Shown here piece after piece: positions 128-5,783 of a stretch of 64,000 nt of DNA. Position numbers and translations under genes: made by a program. The stretch is taken from the IMG/VR virus record IMGVR_UViG_3300021962_000023, positions 1 to 64,000 of that record; one strand, given 5' to 3'. The notes under the pieces were generated by a model. It was not told the origin of the DNA, did not search any database, and saw nothing but the letters and a program-made list of their open reading frames with translations. Numbering within the stretch: position 1 is the stretch's first letter; every line of letters begins with the position of its first letter. The stretch comes from a virus.

Positions 128-200
128 GAGCAGATGATAGGAATCGAACCTACGTCTCCTACTTGGAAGGAAGGAGTAATGACCATTATACGACATCTGC
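128..200 (-). tRNA. tRNA-Gly(TCC)
   Basis: Cloverleaf GCAGATG..CATCTGC, loop CTTCCAA, T-loop GGTTCGATTCC. Confidence 0.93.
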
Positions 201-203
201 ATT

Positions 204-250
204 TAGTGGATGAACAACATCTATCGTTCTTTTGGCTTCCCACTAAAGCC
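204..250 (-). ncRNA. Candidate H-type pseudoknot RNA between two tRNA-Gly genes
   Basis: GGCUU/AAGCC hairpin whose loop UAGUGG pairs with downstream CCACUA; intervening GAAC/GUUC hairpin. Confidence 0.45.
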
Positions 251-253
251 CAT

Positions 254-329
254 TGGAGCGGAAGACCAGATTCGAACTGGCGACCTATTGCTTGGCAAGC
301 AATCGCTCTACCAACTGAGCTACTTCCGC
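254..329 (-). tRNA. tRNA-Gly(GCC)
   Basis: GCGGAAG..CTTCCGC-T-CCA, arm ATTGC-TTGCCAA-GCAAT, encoded CCA. Confidence 0.96.
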
Positions 330-334
330 AATTT

Positions 335-462
335 GTGTAGGATACGCCCACCTACACCACACTTTTAGTAGTATGTTACCACACTACCACGTTTCGAGTT
401 GTTTAACGACCTACTCTAAATGTCATCCGCCAGGGTGTGCTTCACGTTAAACCCGGAGACGC
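335..462 (-). ncRNA. Candidate variant type-III hammerhead ribozyme (389-461) followed by two hairpins
   Basis: GCGUC / GAAACGU stem III, stem I UCCGGGU/ACCCUGG, core CGGAUGA, stem II GAGU/ACUC, loop I-loop II pairing UUAACG/CGUUAA; non-consensus G4 and 6-nt insert. Confidence 0.45.
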
Positions 463-465
463 TTA

Positions 466-542
466 TGGTGGACCAAACAGGGCTCGAACCTGTGACCTTG
501 TCGTTATGAGCGACCTGCTCTAACCATCTGAGCTATAAGTCC
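466..542 (-). tRNA. tRNA-CAT, probably Ile2 (lysidine type) or elongator Met
   Basis: GGACTTATAGCTCAG start, loop CTCATAA, encoded ACCA; lacks initiator features. Confidence 0.9.
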
Positions 543-547
543 AAATT

Positions 548-669
548 ATAGAAAGGATTCGGGTCTTTCAGGGTTACTGATGATGAATGCGGGCTTAAAG
601 TCGTACTACTAACCCTTTTTCAAACCTATACCCCATAAGTTCATCATTACAGCTTCACTACCTTTCTAT
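548..669 (-). ncRNA. Candidate pseudoknotted RNA (~120 nt)
   Basis: Closing stem AUAGAAAGG/CCUUUCUAU; crossing helices AUGAUGAA/UUCAUCAU and GGGUUA/UAACCC. Confidence 0.5.
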
Positions 670-671
670 TG

Positions 672-744
672 TGGAGGTACAGAGATTCGAACTCTGGATT
701 CCTGCGTGCAAGGCAAGTGTGTTAGCCAACTATACCATACCCCC
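672..744 (-). tRNA. tRNA-Ala(TGC)
   Basis: GGGGGTA..TACCTCC-A with G3:U70, arm CTTGC-CTTGCAC-GCAGG. Confidence 0.93.
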
Positions 745-749
745 AATCG

Positions 750-834
750 TACTCGGGGCCGGACTCGAACCGGCACGGACCTTTCGGTCCAAAGGATTTT
801 AAGTCCTTCGTGGCTACCATTACACCACCCGAGC
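750..834 (-). tRNA. tRNA-Leu(TAA)
   Basis: Arm AAGGA-CTTAAAA-TCCTT, long variable arm GGACC-GAAA-GGTCC, GTTCGAGTC T-loop. Confidence 0.95.
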
Positions 835-836
835 AT

Positions 837-1079
837 TTAATATCCTATTTCATCTTTAATCTTCCATTGGGTATCGTGTGGAATTCGTTCAATTCTTTCA
901 ACTGGAACAAACCCATCAAACCCACTTTCTTTAACATCTTCAAAATGTTCAATGGTGTCCAAATAGAAACCAAATGAATATCTGATGTATTGGAATTTAT
1001 CACCATCCCAATATGCCACATGGTTGTTTCTACTAAACCCGTTATACCAGCCTTCCTTTATTTCACTTTTTGGTATCAT
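837..1079 (-). CDS. Hypothetical protein within tRNA array
   Basis: 80-aa ORF fills the gap between tRNA-Arg and tRNA-Leu; protein-like composition. Confidence 0.7.
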   Translation of the reverse strand: MIPKSEIKEGWYNGFSRNNHVAYWDGDKFQYIRYSFGFYLDTIEHFEDVKESGFDGFVPVERIERIPHDTQWKIKDEIGY

Positions 1080-1099
1080 AATAACTTTTTTAATTTACG

Positions 1100-1173
<74 letters not shown>

Positions 1174-1178
1174 ATATG

Positions 1179-1252
1179 CGGTGTATACGAGATTCGAACT
1201 CGTGGTCTCTTCCGTGACAGGGAAGCATGTTAGGCCTCTACACCAATACACC
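1179..1252 (-). tRNA. tRNA-Asp(GTC)
   Basis: GGTGTAT..ATACACC-G, arm CTTCC-CTGTCAC-GGAAG. Confidence 0.95.
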
Positions 1253-1370
1253 AAATTTTCGGAACTTATGGATTTTCACCACCGAAATCTCTTCTCCCAA
1301 CTAGCCTCATTGAGTGAGTGTTATCGCGTAATTCGTCATTCCTAATCTAAAGTAATTAATTTTAGATTTG

Positions 1371-1443
1371 AGCCTCCAGTCGGAATCGAACCAACGACCT
1401 ACTGATTACAAATCAGTTGCTCTACCTGCTGAGCTATGGAGGC
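1371..1443 (-). tRNA. tRNA-Thr(TGT)
   Basis: GCCTCCA..TGGAGGC-T, arm ACTGA-TTTGTAA-TCAGT. Confidence 0.95.
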
Positions 1444-1451
1444 AATTTGTA

Positions 1452-1546
1452 GTAAGAGAGATGTCACAGCCACCTCATCTCTCTTACCTATTCACATACT
1501 AACGGCTCAATGTGGCTTGACCGAATTAAAGTGGCTGATATGTGAG
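1452..1546 (-). ncRNA. Candidate two-domain pseudoknotted RNA
   Basis: Stem UCACAUA/UAUGUGA with inner CGGUCAA/UUGAGCCG; 12-bp hairpin GUAAGAGAGAUG/CAUCUCUCUUAC whose loop GGUGGCUG pairs with upstream CAGCCACU. Confidence 0.55.
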
Positions 1547-1549
1547 TTG

Positions 1550-1623
1550 TACTCCGTACGGGGTTCGAACCCGTAAGCTCTCCCGTGAAAGGGGAGTGTC
1601 CTAACCAATTAGACGAACGGAGC
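1550..1623 (-). tRNA. tRNA-Glu(TTC)
   Basis: GCTCCGT..ACGGAGT-A, arm CTCCC-CTTTCAC-GGGAG. Confidence 0.95.
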
Positions 1624-1656
1624 GTTACTTATTAAACCATTATTTCAAAGAACATT

Positions 1657-1690
1657 ACAAATATACGAAAAGTTTTTTATAATGTCAAGT
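1657..1690 (-). promoter_or_regulatory. Bacteroidota-type sigma promoter for the distal tRNA sub-cluster
   Basis: Minus strand CTTGACATTATAAAAAACTTTTCGTATATTTGT: TAnnTTTG -7 element, motif repeated across the window. Confidence 0.75.
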
Positions 1691-1709
1691 ACTTTTATAT
1701 ATTTATTTT

Positions 1710-2165
1710 TTACATTTTTACTAAATGGTCCGCACAATATGTTGCGATTGGACCTAAAGTTTTGTATCGTACATTATAACCCATACCTTCAACCATACCT
1801 ACCGCTTGTCTGAACACTTCATTAGATTTGTATTTAGGGTCTGGATTTAAATCCACATCAATCCAAGTTGCTTTTTGAACTCCGGCATTTCGTAATTCTT
1901 CTGCTACTTCAACTGAAAACCAAACTTCATTTAATAATCTTACTGAACGAGTGTACTCTCTCGGTGCATTCCACCGATTGTATAATACATGCGCTCCTCT
2001 ACCTGGCGTATATAATGCTACAACAATTGCATAGATAGTTTTATCTCTGAAGTTTTGTGAATCACATCCAATTAGTATTTCAACTCCTTCATGTTCATTC
2101 ATATATTCAGCGATATATGTTTCTAATTCAACTTTCGTTCCATCATGTAGTTTTCTATAAACCAT
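1710..2165 (-). CDS. RNase H-like YkuK/DUF458 family protein
   Basis: ILIGCDSQ and WIDVD acidic motifs typical of the family; the ORF-track ATG at 2189 lies inside the tRNA-Leu acceptor stem, so the start is moved to MVYRK at 2165. Confidence 0.75.
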   Translation of the reverse strand: MVYRKLHDGTKVELETYIAEYMNEHEGVEILIGCDSQNFRDKTIYAIVVALYTPGRGAHVLYNRWNAPREYTRSVRLLNEVWFSVEVAEELRNAGVQKATWIDVDLNPDPKYKSNEVFRQAVGMVEGMGYNVRYKTLGPIATYCADHLVKM

Positions 2166-2182
2166 ATCATTATTATTTATTG

Positions 2183-2257
2183 TACCCATAGAAGGACTCG
2201 AACCTTCAATTGTGTGGTGTCTAAAGCCACTGCGTATTCCAATTCCGCCATACGGGT
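2183..2257 (-). tRNA. tRNA-Leu(TAG), short variable region
   Basis: Leu-type D arm GCGGAATTGGAATACGC, loop TTTAGAC, only 6-nt variable region ACAATT, A73. Confidence 0.85.
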
Positions 2258-2266
2258 GTGTTTCCG

Positions 2267-2352
2267 TAGAGAGTAAGGGGTTCGAACCCTTGCGACTTTT
2301 ACATCCTACCTGTTTAGCAAACAGGCCCCTTCACCAACTTGGGTAACTCTCT
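2267..2352 (-). tRNA. tRNA-Ser(GCT)
   Basis: AGAGAGT..ACTCTCT, arm CCTGT-TTGCTAA-ACAGG, long variable arm. Confidence 0.93.
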
Positions 2353-2354
2353 AT

Positions 2355-2431
2355 TGGGGTGATTAATGGGATTCGAACCCATGCTATCAGTACCACAAAC
2401 TGACGTGCTAACCGCTAACACTATAAACACC
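2355..2431 (-). tRNA. tRNA-His(GTG)
   Basis: Encoded G-1, arm TCAGT-TTGTGGT-ACTGA, C73 plus CCA. Confidence 0.93.
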
Positions 2432-2437
2432 ATATTT

Positions 2438-2496
2438 TGTATAATATATTATTCATTTACCCCTAAATACCAGGGGTTTGTATCATATATTATACA
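2438..2496. other. Long intergenic hairpin
   Basis: TGTATAATATAT/ATATATTATACA 12-bp arms with inner ACCCCT/AGGGGT stem. Confidence 0.5.
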
Positions 2497-2499
2497 TCG

Positions 2500-2569
2500 T
2501 TGCATGTATGAGGTTCGAACTCATTTGGTCATCCTTATGAGAGATAACTCTTTTCCTCTAAGCCATGCA
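2500..2569 (-). tRNA. Atypical tRNA-Met(CAT), missing the position 8-9 linker; possibly a pseudogene
   Basis: Acceptor TGCATG/CATGCA, loop CTCATAA, T arm ATGAG-TTCGAAC-CTCAT; D arm abuts the acceptor stem (70 nt). Confidence 0.65.
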
Positions 2570-2574
2570 GTTTG

Positions 2575-2646
2575 AGTCAAGTATTGGATTCGAACCAATG
2601 TAAAAGGTTTTGCAGACCTCCACCTAACCAACTCGGTCAACCTGAC
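2575..2646 (-). tRNA. tRNA-Cys(GCA)
   Basis: GTCAGGT..ACTTGAC-T, arm GAGGT-CTGCAAA-ACCTT, U73. Confidence 0.93.
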
Positions 2647-2652
2647 ATTATG

Positions 2653-2724
2653 TAGTCCTATTAGGATTCGAACCCAAACTTCTTCATCCGTAGTGAAGGG
2701 TGCTATCCGTTACACCATAGAACC
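2653..2724 (-). tRNA. tRNA-Arg(ACG)
   Basis: GGTTCTA..TAGGACT-A, arm CTTCA-CTACGGA-TGAAG. Confidence 0.92.
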
Positions 2725-2728
2725 ATTA

Positions 2729-2926
2729 TTACTTCCATTGAGTTTTTCGGTTGTGTTTCCAACTTTTATACTCTCTGAACTTATGTGAATAAATTGGTTT
2801 ACCATTTCCATGTCTACCCCAAATCTTTGATGGTGCACAATCATAATACCAACTACCACATCTTTTAGAACAAATGAAACAATAGTTCCATTCCATTCTC
2901 ATTCGTTTTACTCTTTCTTCTTTCAT
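2729..2926 (-). CDS. Small hypothetical Cys/basic protein
   Basis: 65-aa ORF in the tRNA-free gap; CFIC...C...C residues. Confidence 0.5.
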   Translation of the reverse strand: MKEERVKRMRMEWNYCFICSKRCGSWYYDCAPSKIWGRHGNGKPIYSHKFREYKSWKHNRKTQWK

Positions 2927-2988
2927 TTTACATTAGGTTTGTTTACCTAATGCTTGTCAAATAATTGTTTCATAGTTTTACATTTTTG

Positions 2989-3059
2989 CACCCCCTAAAG
3001 GATTCGAACCTTTATCTGCGGTTTTGGAGACCGATATGCTACCATTGCACCAAAGAGAT
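2989..3059 (-). tRNA. tRNA-Trp(CCA)
   Basis: Loop CTCCAAA, canonical T arm; acceptor ATCTCTT/AGGGGGT has three G:U pairs. Confidence 0.85.
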
Positions 3060-3063
3060 ATTT

Positions 3064-3136
3064 AATACGAACATTGACCGGGTTGTGGGTATTCTCCACT
3101 ACTAGTCAGGTTTCAGCCACCCGGTTGATTCGTATT
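3064..3136 (-). ncRNA. Candidate small structured RNA (stem plus three-way junction)
   Basis: AAUACGAA/UUCGUAUU, ACCGGGU/ACCCGGU, hairpins GG-CUGAAA-CC and GUGG-AGAAUAC-CCAC. Confidence 0.55.
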
Positions 3137-3137
3137 G

Positions 3138-3211
3138 TTGGTAGTGCGGGATTCGAACCTGCCACCTTCTCGGTATCAGCGAGATGCTCTAACCAAATGA
3201 GCTAACTACCA
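3138..3211 (-). tRNA. tRNA-Ile(GAT)
   Basis: Arm TCTCG-CTGATAC-CGAGA, canonical D and T loops. Confidence 0.94.
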
Positions 3212-3217
3212 GTGTTG

Positions 3218-3294
3218 TCGGAATGGCTGGATTCGAACCAACGAGTTCTCCACGTCCCAAACGTGGCGGGGTAACCTGACTCCCCAACATTCCG
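3218..3294 (-). tRNA. tRNA-Pro(TGG)
   Basis: CGGAATG..CATTCCG-A, arm CCACG-TTTGGGA-CGTGG. Confidence 0.93.
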
Positions 3295-3343
3295 TTATTG
3301 TACTTCCTATGTGCAGAGTTGTCTAGTACTAACCATTCTCCAG

Positions 3344-3417
3344 TGAACCCGAATGGACTCGAACCATTGACTCCCTCATTAAAAGTGAGGTGCTCTAACC
3401 GACTGAGCTACGGATTC
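3344..3417 (-). tRNA. tRNA-Lys(TTT)
   Basis: Arm CCTCA-CTTTTAA-TGAGG. Confidence 0.95.
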
Positions 3418-3480
3418 ATAATAAAGTTATTTCTGTCTAATAAAGATAATCACTTTATTGTTCAAATATCACTTTAGTTG

Positions 3481-3553
3481 TGGAGCCTCAAGGAATCGAA
3501 CCTTGTCCTCTAGTTCTTCAGACTAGCGTACGCACCAGCTATACCAAAGCTCC
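3481..3553 (-). tRNA. tRNA-Phe(GAA)
   Basis: Arm CTAGT-CTGAAGA-ACTAG. Confidence 0.93.
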
Positions 3554-3559
3554 ATTTTG

Positions 3560-3641
3560 TGCCGCCGGTAGGACTCGAACCTACGAACTCCGAAGAGGAG
3601 GGATTTACAGTCCCTTGCAATTGCCACTATGCGACGTCGGC
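3560..3641 (-). tRNA. tRNA-Tyr(GTA)
   Basis: Arm AGGGA-CTGTAAA-TCCCT, variable arm CTC-TTCG-GAG. Confidence 0.94.
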
Positions 3642-3647
3642 GTTAAA

Positions 3648-3724
3648 TGGTAGAAGATATAGGATTCGAACCTATGACCCTTTGGATGTAAACCAAATGC
3701 TCTAACCGACTGAGCTAATCTTCT
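3648..3724 (-). tRNA. tRNA-Val(TAC)
   Basis: AGAAGAT..ATCTTCT-A-CCA, arm TTTGG-TTTACAT-CCAAA. Confidence 0.95.
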
Positions 3725-3730
3725 ATTTTG

Positions 3731-3802
3731 AGGGAAGGGAGAATTTCGAAATCTCGACCTGATGATTAACAGTCATCCGCTCTGCCTCTGAGCTACCAAC
3801 CC
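3731..3802 (-). tRNA. tRNA-Asn(GTT)
   Basis: Arm GATGA-CTGTTAA-TCATC; T-loop TTCGAAA. Confidence 0.92.
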
Positions 3803-3843
3803 AAAACAAAAAACCCCTTAACTTTGTTATCAGTTAAGGGGTT
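3803..3843 (-). terminator. Intrinsic terminator immediately upstream of tRNA-Asn (putative attenuator)
   Basis: 11-bp stem AACCCCUUAAC/GUUAAGGGGUU followed by UUUUGUUUU. Confidence 0.85.
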
Positions 3844-3875
3844 CTTCAAATATTTTCTATTTAAATCTTACATCA

Positions 3876-4034
3876 TTATCCTTTGTTGATGTCCCTTAAC
3901 TTTGTACTAATATAATCCACCTTGCCTAAATTCAAGACTGCCGGATTTGCTATCGTACTAAACATACCAATCCCTTGCCACTCATTTCTTTGAGTTGCCA
4001 GTGAACAAATTGTATGTAAGTTAAGAGTTTTCAT
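3876..4034 (-). CDS. Putative 52-aa attenuator leader peptide (MKTLNLHTICSLATQRNEWQG...)
   Basis: Internal ATG at 4034 after an AT-rich leader; stop 33 nt before the terminator; 3' end carries a 13-nt copy of the terminator 3' strand. Confidence 0.65.
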   Translation of the reverse strand: MKTLNLHTICSLATQRNEWQGIGMFSTIANPAVLNLGKVDYISTKLRDINKG

Positions 4035-4170
4035 TGTTAATATATATCTAAAAAAATAATAATCGTTTGTTTTTATAAAAAAAAGTAATTCAATTTCAAA
4101 ATACGCCAACCAAGTCATGCTCTGGTTAATATCAGCCTCATTAAATTACTTTTACTAATTAGCTAAAAGA

Positions 4171-4282
4171 GGAAAGTTTTGTAGGGTGGTACTTTCCAAA
4201 GGCCTAGCTACAGCCGTTGATTACCATCAACATAATTCGTATTGTTGAGATTGTTTAAGGTAAAAATCCCCTACGGAAAACC
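4171..4282 (-). ncRNA. Candidate structured RNA (~110 nt)
   Basis: Closing GGUUUU..GUAGGG/CCCUAC..AAAACU; inner UUACC/GGUAA, UCAACA/UGUUGA, GGC/GCC; GGAAAGU/ACUUUCC alternative helix. Confidence 0.45.
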
Positions 4283-4312
4283 ATACTATTCTATATTTGT
4301 CATTTTTTATTT

Positions 4313-4366
4313 AAGTGGAACTTTTAGTTATGGAAAGTACATCCAGCTATCTACATTAAACCACTA
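4313..4366 (-). ncRNA. Candidate small structured RNA 3' of the atypical tRNA-Gly
   Basis: AGUGG/CCACU closing stem, ACUUU/AAAGU inner stem. Confidence 0.3.
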
Positions 4367-4371
4367 CGAAG

Positions 4372-4443
4372 AGCGGTGCGAAGGTTTTGCTCCCCCTCCT
4401 CCTATCTGGAATGATAGGCGTGCTACTATTACACCAATACCGC
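4372..4443 (-). tRNA. Non-canonical tRNA-Gly(UCC)-like RNA with 8-nt anticodon loop
   Basis: GCGGUAU/GCACCGC-U73; CCUAU-CAUUCCAG-AUAGG; T-loop AGCAAAA replaces UUCRA; D-loop lacks GG. Confidence 0.75.
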
Positions 4444-4448
4444 TTATA

Positions 4449-5316
4449 TAAGGATGAGAATACTCCTTTTTGTGAACCAGCTTTCGAAAGATTATTGTTT
4501 CCTTTCTTTTCCACTTCCTTTTGAGAAGTACCAATTCAATGTGGGTTGGTAATGCCAACCAATCATAGAGTTTCAGATTACTCTCTCCCTACTTATTTTC
4601 TTCAACCCTGCCGAGCTGATTCACACTTGCGATGTTAGAAACCTTTCAAAAGAATCACAGACCTCTTGCGGAGGTATCGTGGCAGGGAACAACTCCCTAC
4701 TATGTACACACCTTTCATCTGAAACTGGTAAACACTTTTGCTCTTTTAGTTTTATAGTTTGCACCTAAAGCAAATTTGAGTTTTGGTTTGTAGATGGATT
4801 CGAGTAGTGGTTTACCACCAGCTCCGTTATCTTTTGAACAACAGAATACTTTACTACTCAATGTGATATCCCTATCACCATACTTCAAGTCATCTTCAAT
4901 AGAAGGGATTGGTGTCCCAGTCTAAAGGATAATAACAACACCACTTGTACATTATCTTATCTTGCGTCCTTTCGGATAGCTTGATTCTCAAGACCACTTT
5001 AGTATTGAATCACGCAATGATAAGGAGAGATTAAGTCCTTACTTCTCACAATAATTCTATGAGTTATTCTTATTGATGTTCCCATCTCAACTGAACAATC
5101 TACATTTGCCCAGTCATTCCGGCTCTTCGATGATAGTGTTACCCCCACCTACAAAGTCAGAATGATATCTCACTTGCCTACTTGAGCTTGCTCTCTTTTG
5201 GAGAGTAGCCGCAAACCGTCTAACCAAACGATTCACTTTATCCTACTTTCGTAGTTTATTTCACGACCATAGGCGGCCGTTGTTACACTATGTAGAACGA
5301 ATCTACTATGTGTAAT
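4449..5316 (-). ncRNA. Large structured ncRNA, GOLLD-like (~870 nt)
   Basis: No long ORF; higher GC than flanks; many hairpins with GNRA loops (CUAC-GAAA-GUAG, UCC-GAAA-GGA, ACCUCC-GCAA-GAGGU); own promoter at 5422; size and tRNA adjacency match GOLLD. Family call not verified by covariance model. Confidence 0.7.
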
Positions 5317-5421
5317 CTTTTTACGAATAATTGAAATGTTGTACATTTAATGGGCGTCTTATTTACGATTAGTCTACTATCCCACAATTATTATATGTTA
5401 AAGAACTTTTGTTTTGTTTTA

Positions 5422-5455
5422 ACAAATATACGAAAACTTTTTCAAACTTCCTAAT
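5422..5455 (-). promoter_or_regulatory. Bacteroidota-type promoter upstream of the large ncRNA
   Basis: TTTTCGTATATTTGT -7 element. Confidence 0.75.
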
Positions 5456-5589
5456 ATTTTTAAAACTTTTTTTTTATAAATTTGAATACCGAGTATCTTT
5501 CATCACCTATAAGTTTCTCATTTACTATGTAAAGATAATACTTTTTTTTCAGATTTCCAAATAAACTTTCAAATTTATTTTAATTTTTT

Positions 5590-5652
5590 TTGTTGAACAT
5601 TTTCAGCTATGTTTACTTACACCATATATGCTTCTTACTTCTGAATCAACAA
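5590..5652 (-). ncRNA. Candidate ~65-nt stem-loop sRNA directly after a promoter
   Basis: UUGUUGA/UCAACAA, UUCAG/CUGAA, UAUG/CAUA nested stems; starts next to the TATATTTG element at 5654-5667. Confidence 0.45.
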
Positions 5653-5653
5653 T

Positions 5654-5685
5654 ACAAATATACGAAACTTTTTTCATATATCCAA
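5654..5685 (-). promoter_or_regulatory. Bacteroidota-type promoter
   Basis: TTTCGTATATTTGT with upstream TTTGG. Confidence 0.75.
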
Positions 5686-5712
5686 ATAATTTTTCAATTA
5701 TTTTTTCTTTAG

Positions 5713-5783
5713 TTGCGCAGGAAGGAATCGAACCTCCATCTCTGGGTTATGAGCCCTGTATGCTACCTTTACACCACCGCACG
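5713..5783 (-). tRNA. Initiator tRNA-fMet(CAT)
   Basis: C1:A72 mismatch, three consecutive G:C pairs (GGG/CCC) in the anticodon stem, loop CTCATAA. Confidence 0.92.

Follow-up and report, generated by a model that had tools for sequence, protein, structure and literature searches.

Why does a tRNA-like element that breaks the rules of decoding stand directly behind the 3' end of a GOLLD RNA? The question is raised by the minus strand of 4372..4443 in the window, that is, the whole stretch of 64,000 nucleotides analysed here, which covers the first 64 kb of a virus record of 198.5 kb with 31.7% G+C. GOLLD is among the largest bacterial and phage RNAs, and it forms 12-14-mer cages. To our knowledge, GOLLD has no known function, and its nearness to tRNA genes is the only consistent clue. 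All 23 tRNA genes and the tmRNA of the 198.5-kb phage are located inside the window, with the tRNAs at 128-5783.

The cloverleaf of the 72-nt element was parsed by hand from the reverse complement of 4372-4443. G1 is located at 4443 and the discriminator U73 at 4372; CCA is not encoded, and CUU comes next. The acceptor stem GCGGUAU/GCACCGC contains an A6.C67 mismatch and a U7.G66 wobble. After the linker UG, the D stem GUGU/GCAC closes the D-loop AAUAGUA (4424..4430, minus strand), in which A18 G19 replace G18 G19. A single G leads to the anticodon stem CCUAU/AUAGG. The anticodon loop CAUUCCAG (4406..4413, minus strand) consists of 8 nt, and it reads as an A inserted before U33, followed by UCC, A37 and G38. 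The variable region AGGA is followed by the G.U-rich T stem GGGGG/CCUUC and the T-loop AGCAAAA (4385..4391, minus strand; A54 G55 C56 ... A58). The original prediction of an intact cloverleaf with glycine identity (G1:C72, U73) is correct base for base, as G1:C72, C2:G71, G3:C70 and U73 are all read, together with C35 and C36. The predicted 8-nt anticodon loop, AGCAAAA T-loop and D-loop without GG were found as well, and the normal tRNA-Gly(TCC) placed at 128-200 is called by ARAGORN.

In the window ARAGORN called 23 tRNAs and the tmRNA, and the 4372-4443 element is not among them. The Rfam tRNA model (RF00005) left 4372-4443 unmatched even at E <= 10. The element is below the detection threshold of RF00005, and the 7/4/5/5-bp cloverleaf of an RF00005 tRNA is present with covariation. 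The canonical 7-nt anticodon loop with U33 just before the anticodon and a purine at 37 is not found. The canonical G18 G19 and T54 Psi55 C56 are also missing; A18:G55 is a covarying replacement, and G19:C56 is kept. The ViennaRNA fold is the same cloverleaf, with -23.7 kcal/mol and z = -2.15, to which a C32-G38 pair is added, giving 6 bp and a 6-nt loop in the anticodon arm. This single-sequence fold is weakly better than chance, and the real support comes from the aligned relatives.

GOLLD is located on the same strand immediately upstream of the element, and this junction with the GOLLD 3' end, which the original prediction left aside, is decisive for how the element is read. Its conserved 3' domain (4451..4861, minus strand) matches the full model 1-416 of Rfam RF02032 with 297.9 bits and E = 3e-86. 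The variable 5' domain of the same RNA corresponds to 4862..5330 (minus strand, 5' boundary approximate), where all ORFs are of 57 aa or less and the sequence is 76-95% identical to the upstream halves of relatives. The A/U spacer UAUAUAA (4444..4450, minus strand), assigned from the sequence and the Rfam match, lies between the last GOLLD helix P27 and G1. The element thus begins 7 nt past the last GOLLD helix, and the spacer is 7-14 nt long at all 56 loci of the family described below. The element lies past position 416 of the RF02032 model, behind P27, and not in the linker J13/15.

Downstream of the element, a conserved structured RNA that we call X (4371-4154, minus strand, about 218 nt) starts with CUUCGUAGUGG. 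It is 91% identical in L244, one of the related loci, and has no match in Rfam. Both flanks of RNA X are occupied by tRNA-like units in L244, L247 and the giant-phage loci. A shorter cousin of X (UUCGUAGUGGUUAAC and three covarying hairpins) is located between two tRNA-Glu-like units in the giant-phage loci L091, L379, L380, L023 and L116. RNA X is followed by a 65-nt hairpin, Y (GUAAUUUAAUGAGGCU..UAUUAACCAGAGCAUGACUUGG..GAAUUAC), with a run of 8 U (4149-4077, minus strand), which is conserved in relatives, and later by the tRNA array. Hairpin Y stands directly 3' of the tRNA-like unit in L020, L033, L240, L249 and L257, and it is probably the end of the GOLLD/tRNA-like/X transcript. As a terminator, its interior is unusually conserved. 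No terminator-like site was detected between GOLLD and 3848 in the window, where Y (4077-4149) is the sole U-run hairpin. Therefore, the 3' end of GOLLD has to arise by cleavage.

Relatives were found by anchoring on the GOLLD terminus of the window (AGTATTCTCATC...TAA, followed by GCG) in IMG/VR and metagenomes. This search gave 56 distinct glycine-type units, every one directly behind GOLLD and often in tandem; one or two units per locus are usual. As the search pattern TAAGCG imposed the start G1 C2 G3, only positions 70-73 and 35-36 are unbiased. A D-arm search independent of GOLLD found non-canonical loops only within GOLLD operons (L020, L033, L181, L184). Phage tRNA-Gly(UCC) genes of the canonical type that share this D-arm (L148, L229, L232, L236) had no GOLLD terminus upstream. 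The phage GenBank collection contains a single distant relative, LR756502.1. According to pairwise comparisons with the window, L244 is 95% identical in GOLLD and 91% identical further downstream, but in the unit its identity drops to 70% and the type is the other one, whereas the unit of L370 is 96% identical with a GOLLD of 77% identity. The unit behaves as a swappable cassette. In some relatives the D-loop carries an extra hairpin of about 20-25 nt, both in otherwise complete glycine-type units (L246, L250, L254, L289, L302) and in the Glu-type second units of L023, L091, L116 and L379. The stem of the inserted hairpin covaries (CCACACGGG/CCCGCGGG vs CCACGCGGG/CCCACGGG).

The cloverleaf was examined in an alignment of 51 relatives. 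In this alignment 96.4% of the cells are paired, and both sides are changed in 14 of the 21 pairs, including all five anticodon-stem pairs. Compensatory changes are found in all four stems. None of 500 shuffled controls reached the observed scores, and slid controls paired at 42-57%. The elbow was compared among the 56 distinct units. The 18:55 pair is G:U in 29 units and A:G in 27, and the 19:56 pair is G:C in 52 and A:U in 4; no mixed state occurs in either pair. The 54:58 pair is U:A in 29 units, G:G in 20, A:A in 6 and A:G in 1. The variant T-loop co-occurs with the A18 G19 D-loop in 27/27 cases, none mixed. The cloverleaf and the exceptionless covariation of the elbow therefore indicate a selected L-shaped RNA and not a decaying pseudogene. 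The remodelled elbow is an alternative, maintained elbow, not a product of decay, and A18:G55 with a purine-purine 54:58 pair represents a natural alternative tRNA elbow.

The variant elbow is also observed away from GOLLD, in two IMG/VR loci (L122:9947-10020 and L130). Their D-loops AAUAGUA or AAAAGUA are combined with the T-loops AGCAUAA or AGCGUUA. The carriers are a tRNA-Gln(UUG) gene that is ordinary in other respects and encodes CCA, and a tRNA-Asp-like gene. Thus, the variant elbow may be compatible with real tRNA function.

The anticodon arm shows a different pattern. U73, C35, C36 and C74 are invariant in 56/56 units, and C32, A37 and G38 are nearly invariant; the variable stretch lies between C32 and the wobble base. 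The loop CAUUCCAG is found in 22 distinct units on 12 different covarying stems, and CGUCCAG in 17 units on 10 different stems. The other loops are CGAUCCAG (4 units), CCACCAG (3), CAUACCAG (2), C-AUUCCU-G (2), CCUCCAG (1), CGACCAG (1) and CAUCCG (1); the canonical loops CUUCCAG, CUUCCAA and CUCCCAG account for 3 units. The loop length varies from 6 to 8 nt, with 7 or 6 nt on near-identical backbones. In L249 and L275, CG-UCCAG vs CAUUCCAG is the sole difference. The extra base and the odd T-loop had been proposed for a conservation check. The outcome is positive, as the loop sequence recurs on its 12 stems and A18/G55 in 27/56 units, although the 8-nt length itself is limited to 30/56 and is not a fixed property of the family.

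The bases required for decoding, namely U33, the 7-nt loop and the open 32-38 position, are not kept. G33 or C33 is found in relatives, and the U33 context is gone in most members. A34, which is rare among bacterial decoding tRNAs, is seen several times among the loop variants. In the variant-elbow group CCA is encoded in 0/27 units, and the acceptor base is weak. As the anticodon arm is rebuilt, with an extra base or no U33 and with the C32-G38 pair, normal decoding is unlikely. In contrast, the bacterial glycine identity set consists of G1:C72, C2:G71, U73, C35 and C36 (PMC9976931, PMC7826273), and judged by its bases the element appears to have it complete. G1:C72 and C2:G71 are also kept in the family, where G1, C2 and G3 were set by the search pattern. 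Since every known bacterial GlyRS determinant is kept, the unit can probably be glycylated. A pairing partner of at least 6 nt for the anticodon loop was searched for within 950 nt upstream and 600 nt downstream at 19 loci, and none was consistent or covarying; complements are scattered, such as GGAAUG about 680 nt upstream in 4 loci.

The slot behind GOLLD was compared at about 110 GOLLD loci obtained by a scan for the conserved GOLLD motif. Four kinds of followers were identified: a terminator hairpin, an ordinary tRNA, the odd tRNA-like unit, and an acceptor/T-arm minihelix. The automatic sorting of the 3' ends into terminators and tRNAs is rough, as the regular expression missed many true termini, and the split is qualitative only. 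The ordinary tRNAs start about 8-18 nt downstream and are mostly Met-CAU, with Arg, Ala, Glu and Gly also found. Behind other GOLLDs there are tRNA-Glu-like units with an 8-nt loop of the same design (CUUUUCAG, CUAUUCAG, CUUUUCGG). The minihelix, of 43 nt with a remnant of the D-loop, was found in L045, L056, L101 and L110. The RNase P substrate core is the acceptor/T-arm stack plus the elbow. This stack and elbow are shared by the ordinary tRNA, the tRNA-Glu-like unit and the minihelix, and the terminator ends the transcript by itself. Thus the slot behind GOLLD contains either a terminator or an RNase P-type substrate. As this phage has no terminator there, the unit is read as a punctuation module.

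We therefore favour, with a probability of about one half, a tRNA-Gly-derived mimic that punctuates a phage noncoding RNA operon consisting of GOLLD, the tRNA-like unit, RNA X and hairpin Y. According to this proposal, the four would be transcribed as one unit, and the L-shaped fold would recruit the tRNA-processing enzymes of the host. RNase P would cut before G1, between 4444 and 4443, giving the mature 3' end of GOLLD just behind P27; the spacer 4444..4450 would be the RNase P leader and, after cleavage, the 3' tail of GOLLD. A 3' endonuclease would cut after U73 and RNA X would be freed. The released 72-nt RNA could be completed by a host CCA-adding enzyme, and it would probably be chargeable with glycine and non-decoding. 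A pure processing handle, however, needs no C35, C36, A37, U73 or an invariant CAUUCCAG on 12 stems, and a function that depends on the anticodon arm must therefore exist. That the glycine determinants are preserved and the loop is invariant shows that the released mimic has a further function beyond processing. The most interesting candidates are a decoy for tRNA-directed host toxins and a GOLLD-bound ligand.

GOLLD at 4470-5340 is covered at high depth (10^3-10^4, summed contigs) in four freshwater metatranscriptome runs from three studies, and the depth drops beyond. This stretch is among the most deeply covered ones in the four assemblies. In three of the four runs, cover is absent over the tRNA-like unit and present over X and Y downstream. 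This gap is no more than a hint of excision, as missing contig cover is no evidence and contigs cannot show ends. One contig, X16 (depth 264, from an L181-type relative), spans 4333-4586 and includes the GOLLD/unit junction with the loop unedited. Thus, an uncut precursor, or DNA in that library, exists.

Several other readings of the unit were considered. A decaying tRNA-Gly pseudogene or a chance cloverleaf would fit the failure of the tRNA finders and the fold z of only -2.15. This candidate is ruled out by compensatory changes in four stems, by perfect tertiary covariation in 56 distinct relatives, and by units that are more conserved than GOLLD in some pairs (96% vs 77%). Decay of the homologs, raised as a check at the outset, is not seen; the relatives covary, as is expected for a functional RNA. 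A working decoding tRNA-Gly is very unlikely, whether as a reader of the quadruplet GGA-A with +1 frameshifting, as originally suggested, or as a triplet reader that tolerates the 8-nt loop. Frameshift suppressor tRNAs with 8-nt anticodon loops are established, U33-UCC-A37 is intact in the loop of the window copy with the extra base on the 5' side, and the glycine identity set is full. In addition, L037, L245, L248 and L327 combine a canonical elbow, a perfect acceptor stem and encoded CCA with the loops CGUCCAG or C-AUUCCU-G. On the other hand, the family includes 7-nt loops without U33 (CGUCCAG, CCACCAG), a 6-nt loop and A34 variants, and position 33 is often G or C. The window copy itself has the A6.C67 mismatch, a G.U-rich T stem, no T54/Psi55 and no CCA, and the phage already has a canonical tRNA-Gly(UCC) at 128-200. 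In the phage, 456 in-frame GGA-A are found among 1430 GGA codons (observed/expected 0.91), which in this weak test is no avoidance. An equally weak test found GGA at 8/44 of the +1 ORF junctions vs 10/64 of the -1 control, with no excess. As the loop length is not conserved and neither GGA-A nor the ORF junctions give a signal, an efficient quadruplet decoder is unlikely. A non-ribosomal glycine donor, also suggested originally, would receive its glycine from GlyRS, bind weakly to EF-Tu and the ribosome, and serve a transferase. This is highly improbable even though the glycine identity is kept while the D and T loops and the T stem are altered, the decoding features are lost, and discrimination in Staphylococcus aureus lies in the D and T arms (PMC7826273). 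The lineage of the S. aureus non-proteogenic tRNA was found only in staphylococci (PMC7826273), and no acceptor pathway is in sight. A Pfam search of the phage genome, with the host outside its scope, matched no FemAB family (PF02388), no PolyA_pol (the head domain of CCA-adding enzymes), no class II aminoacyl-tRNA synthetase core and no RNA ligase.

Two further readings concern host defence and the GOLLD cage. The unit could be an anti-defence decoy, as the original prediction also proposed, or a nuclease-resistant tRNA-Gly that soaks up or escapes a toxin by changing the side of the loop with the cleavage site. Such a unit would keep the marks for a tRNA-Gly-directed toxin, be it an anticodon nuclease or an acetyltransferase of the TacT kind, which recognises U73/G71. 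The bases immediately before the wobble base are hypervariable and NCC-A37-G38, U73 and G71 are constant, near-identical backbones differ only at that loop site (L249 vs L275), and the unit swaps as a cassette. Phage tRNAs are reported to evade anticodon nucleases by loop changes (PMC10264068), and the TacT identity is U73 plus G71 (PMC9976931). However, the cases in PMC10264068 include no Gly, U33 or loop-size change, these loci have no link to any host or to a defence gene, the Pfam RNA ligase is unmatched in the phage genome, which leaves the phage with no RNA-repair ligase, and the fixed position behind GOLLD is left unexplained. A decoy is thus unlikely as the primary role. We also know of no tRNA-Gly-specific anticodon nuclease. 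Alternatively, the unit could stay attached as a 3'-terminal tRNA-like structure of GOLLD, protecting the 3' end or equipping the nanocage with 12-14 displayed tRNA mimics that act as bait, cargo or docking site. Published models of the GOLLD cage discuss covalently linked tRNAs in the linker (10.1101/2024.12.08.627333; PMC12990946), one RNA contig bridges 4333-4586, and the short fixed spacer of 7-14 nt fits. Permanent attachment is nevertheless quite unlikely. Transcription runs on into X and Y, and the unit is not terminal without cleavage; RNase P normally accepts any exposed tRNA fold as a substrate. In many GOLLDs the 3' end is a plain terminator, and the P27 loop is a buried tertiary hub, so that there is little room for a tRNA 7 nt away.

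The punctuating mimic, which we prefer, can be compared with several known systems. mascRNA and menRNA are tRNA-like modules at the 3' end of the lncRNAs MALAT1 and MEN-beta and are cut by RNase P (PMC8457004, PMC11693755). The unit resembles them in that a tRNA fold immediately follows the final structured element of a long noncoding RNA. A predicted RNase P cut would likewise make the 3' end of the long RNA and free a small non-decoding mimic. In the unit no terminator lies between this fold and the last helix, and the acceptor/T-arm stack and elbow are conserved while the rest is dispensable, as in the slots occupied by a minihelix only. The unit differs in its phage setting, in being a full-size mimic of 72 nt with a complete anticodon arm and the full aminoacylation identity set, and in that its cleavage is only predicted; the resemblance is not homology.

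tRNA arrays or islands around GOLLD, a tRNA embedded in the linker J13/15, and a 'pseudo tRNA' inside a mycobacterial GOLLD have been published (10.1101/2024.12.08.627333; PMC12990946; PMC6582537). The unit shares with these the GOLLD partner and the setting of a phage tRNA island. Unlike them, it sits after P27 at the 3' end, not in an internal linker, and it belongs to a conserved glycine-derived family with rebuilt loops. Our literature search found no account of a family of tRNA-like elements at the 3' end of GOLLD. What this family contributes is a glycine-derived type, a unit welded directly to P27, and an elbow that covaries.

The sufD tRNA-Gly and SufJ are +1 frameshift suppressors with 8-nt anticodon loops. 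The unit has the tRNA-Gly body, the 8-nt loop and the extra base 5' of the anticodon in common with such suppressors. Unlike in these, the loop size and U33 vary among the orthologues, the elbow and the acceptor base are altered, and the weak tests on codon usage and ORFs gave no sign of frameshifting in this phage. The staphylococcal non-proteogenic tRNA-Gly (PMC7826273) is similar in combining a retained glycine identity with altered D/T regions, a pattern that suggests escape from translation. The unit differs from it in lineage, and no Fem partner was found in the phage.

These results sharpen the clue that links GOLLD to tRNAs. A conserved family of at least 56 distinct sequences, missed by the standard tRNA finders, is welded to the GOLLD 3' end. 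Covarying tertiary pairs preserve the L-shape of tRNA in this family, and the glycine identity set is retained as well, yet the family breaks the decoding rules. A bolder proposal, which taken as a whole we regard as doubtful, is that GOLLD operons are factories for chargeable, non-decoding mimics with which the GOLLD nanocage works as its partners or which it carries as cargo, with the recognition elements for synthetase and toxin kept and the nuclease-facing side of the loop varied. If true, the mimics could, for example, form a multivalent trap that captures GlyRS or the defence enzymes with which a host targets tRNAs, and this would be the first concrete function for GOLLD.

Some minor features of the tRNA array of the window were also observed. 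At 2500-2569 (minus strand) the Rfam tRNA model gives a weak match of 22.5 bits, which is below its threshold, to a tRNA-like sequence that ARAGORN does not call. The loop of this sequence is CUCAUAA, with the anticodon CAU, and its D-arm is reduced; it may be another non-canonical tRNA of the array. The set of 23 tRNAs covers nearly every amino acid other than Gln, for which no tRNA is present. Within the array, a 159-aa ORF at 1710-2189 (minus strand) matches the Pfam family RNaseH_like (PF04308, E = 2.9e-19).
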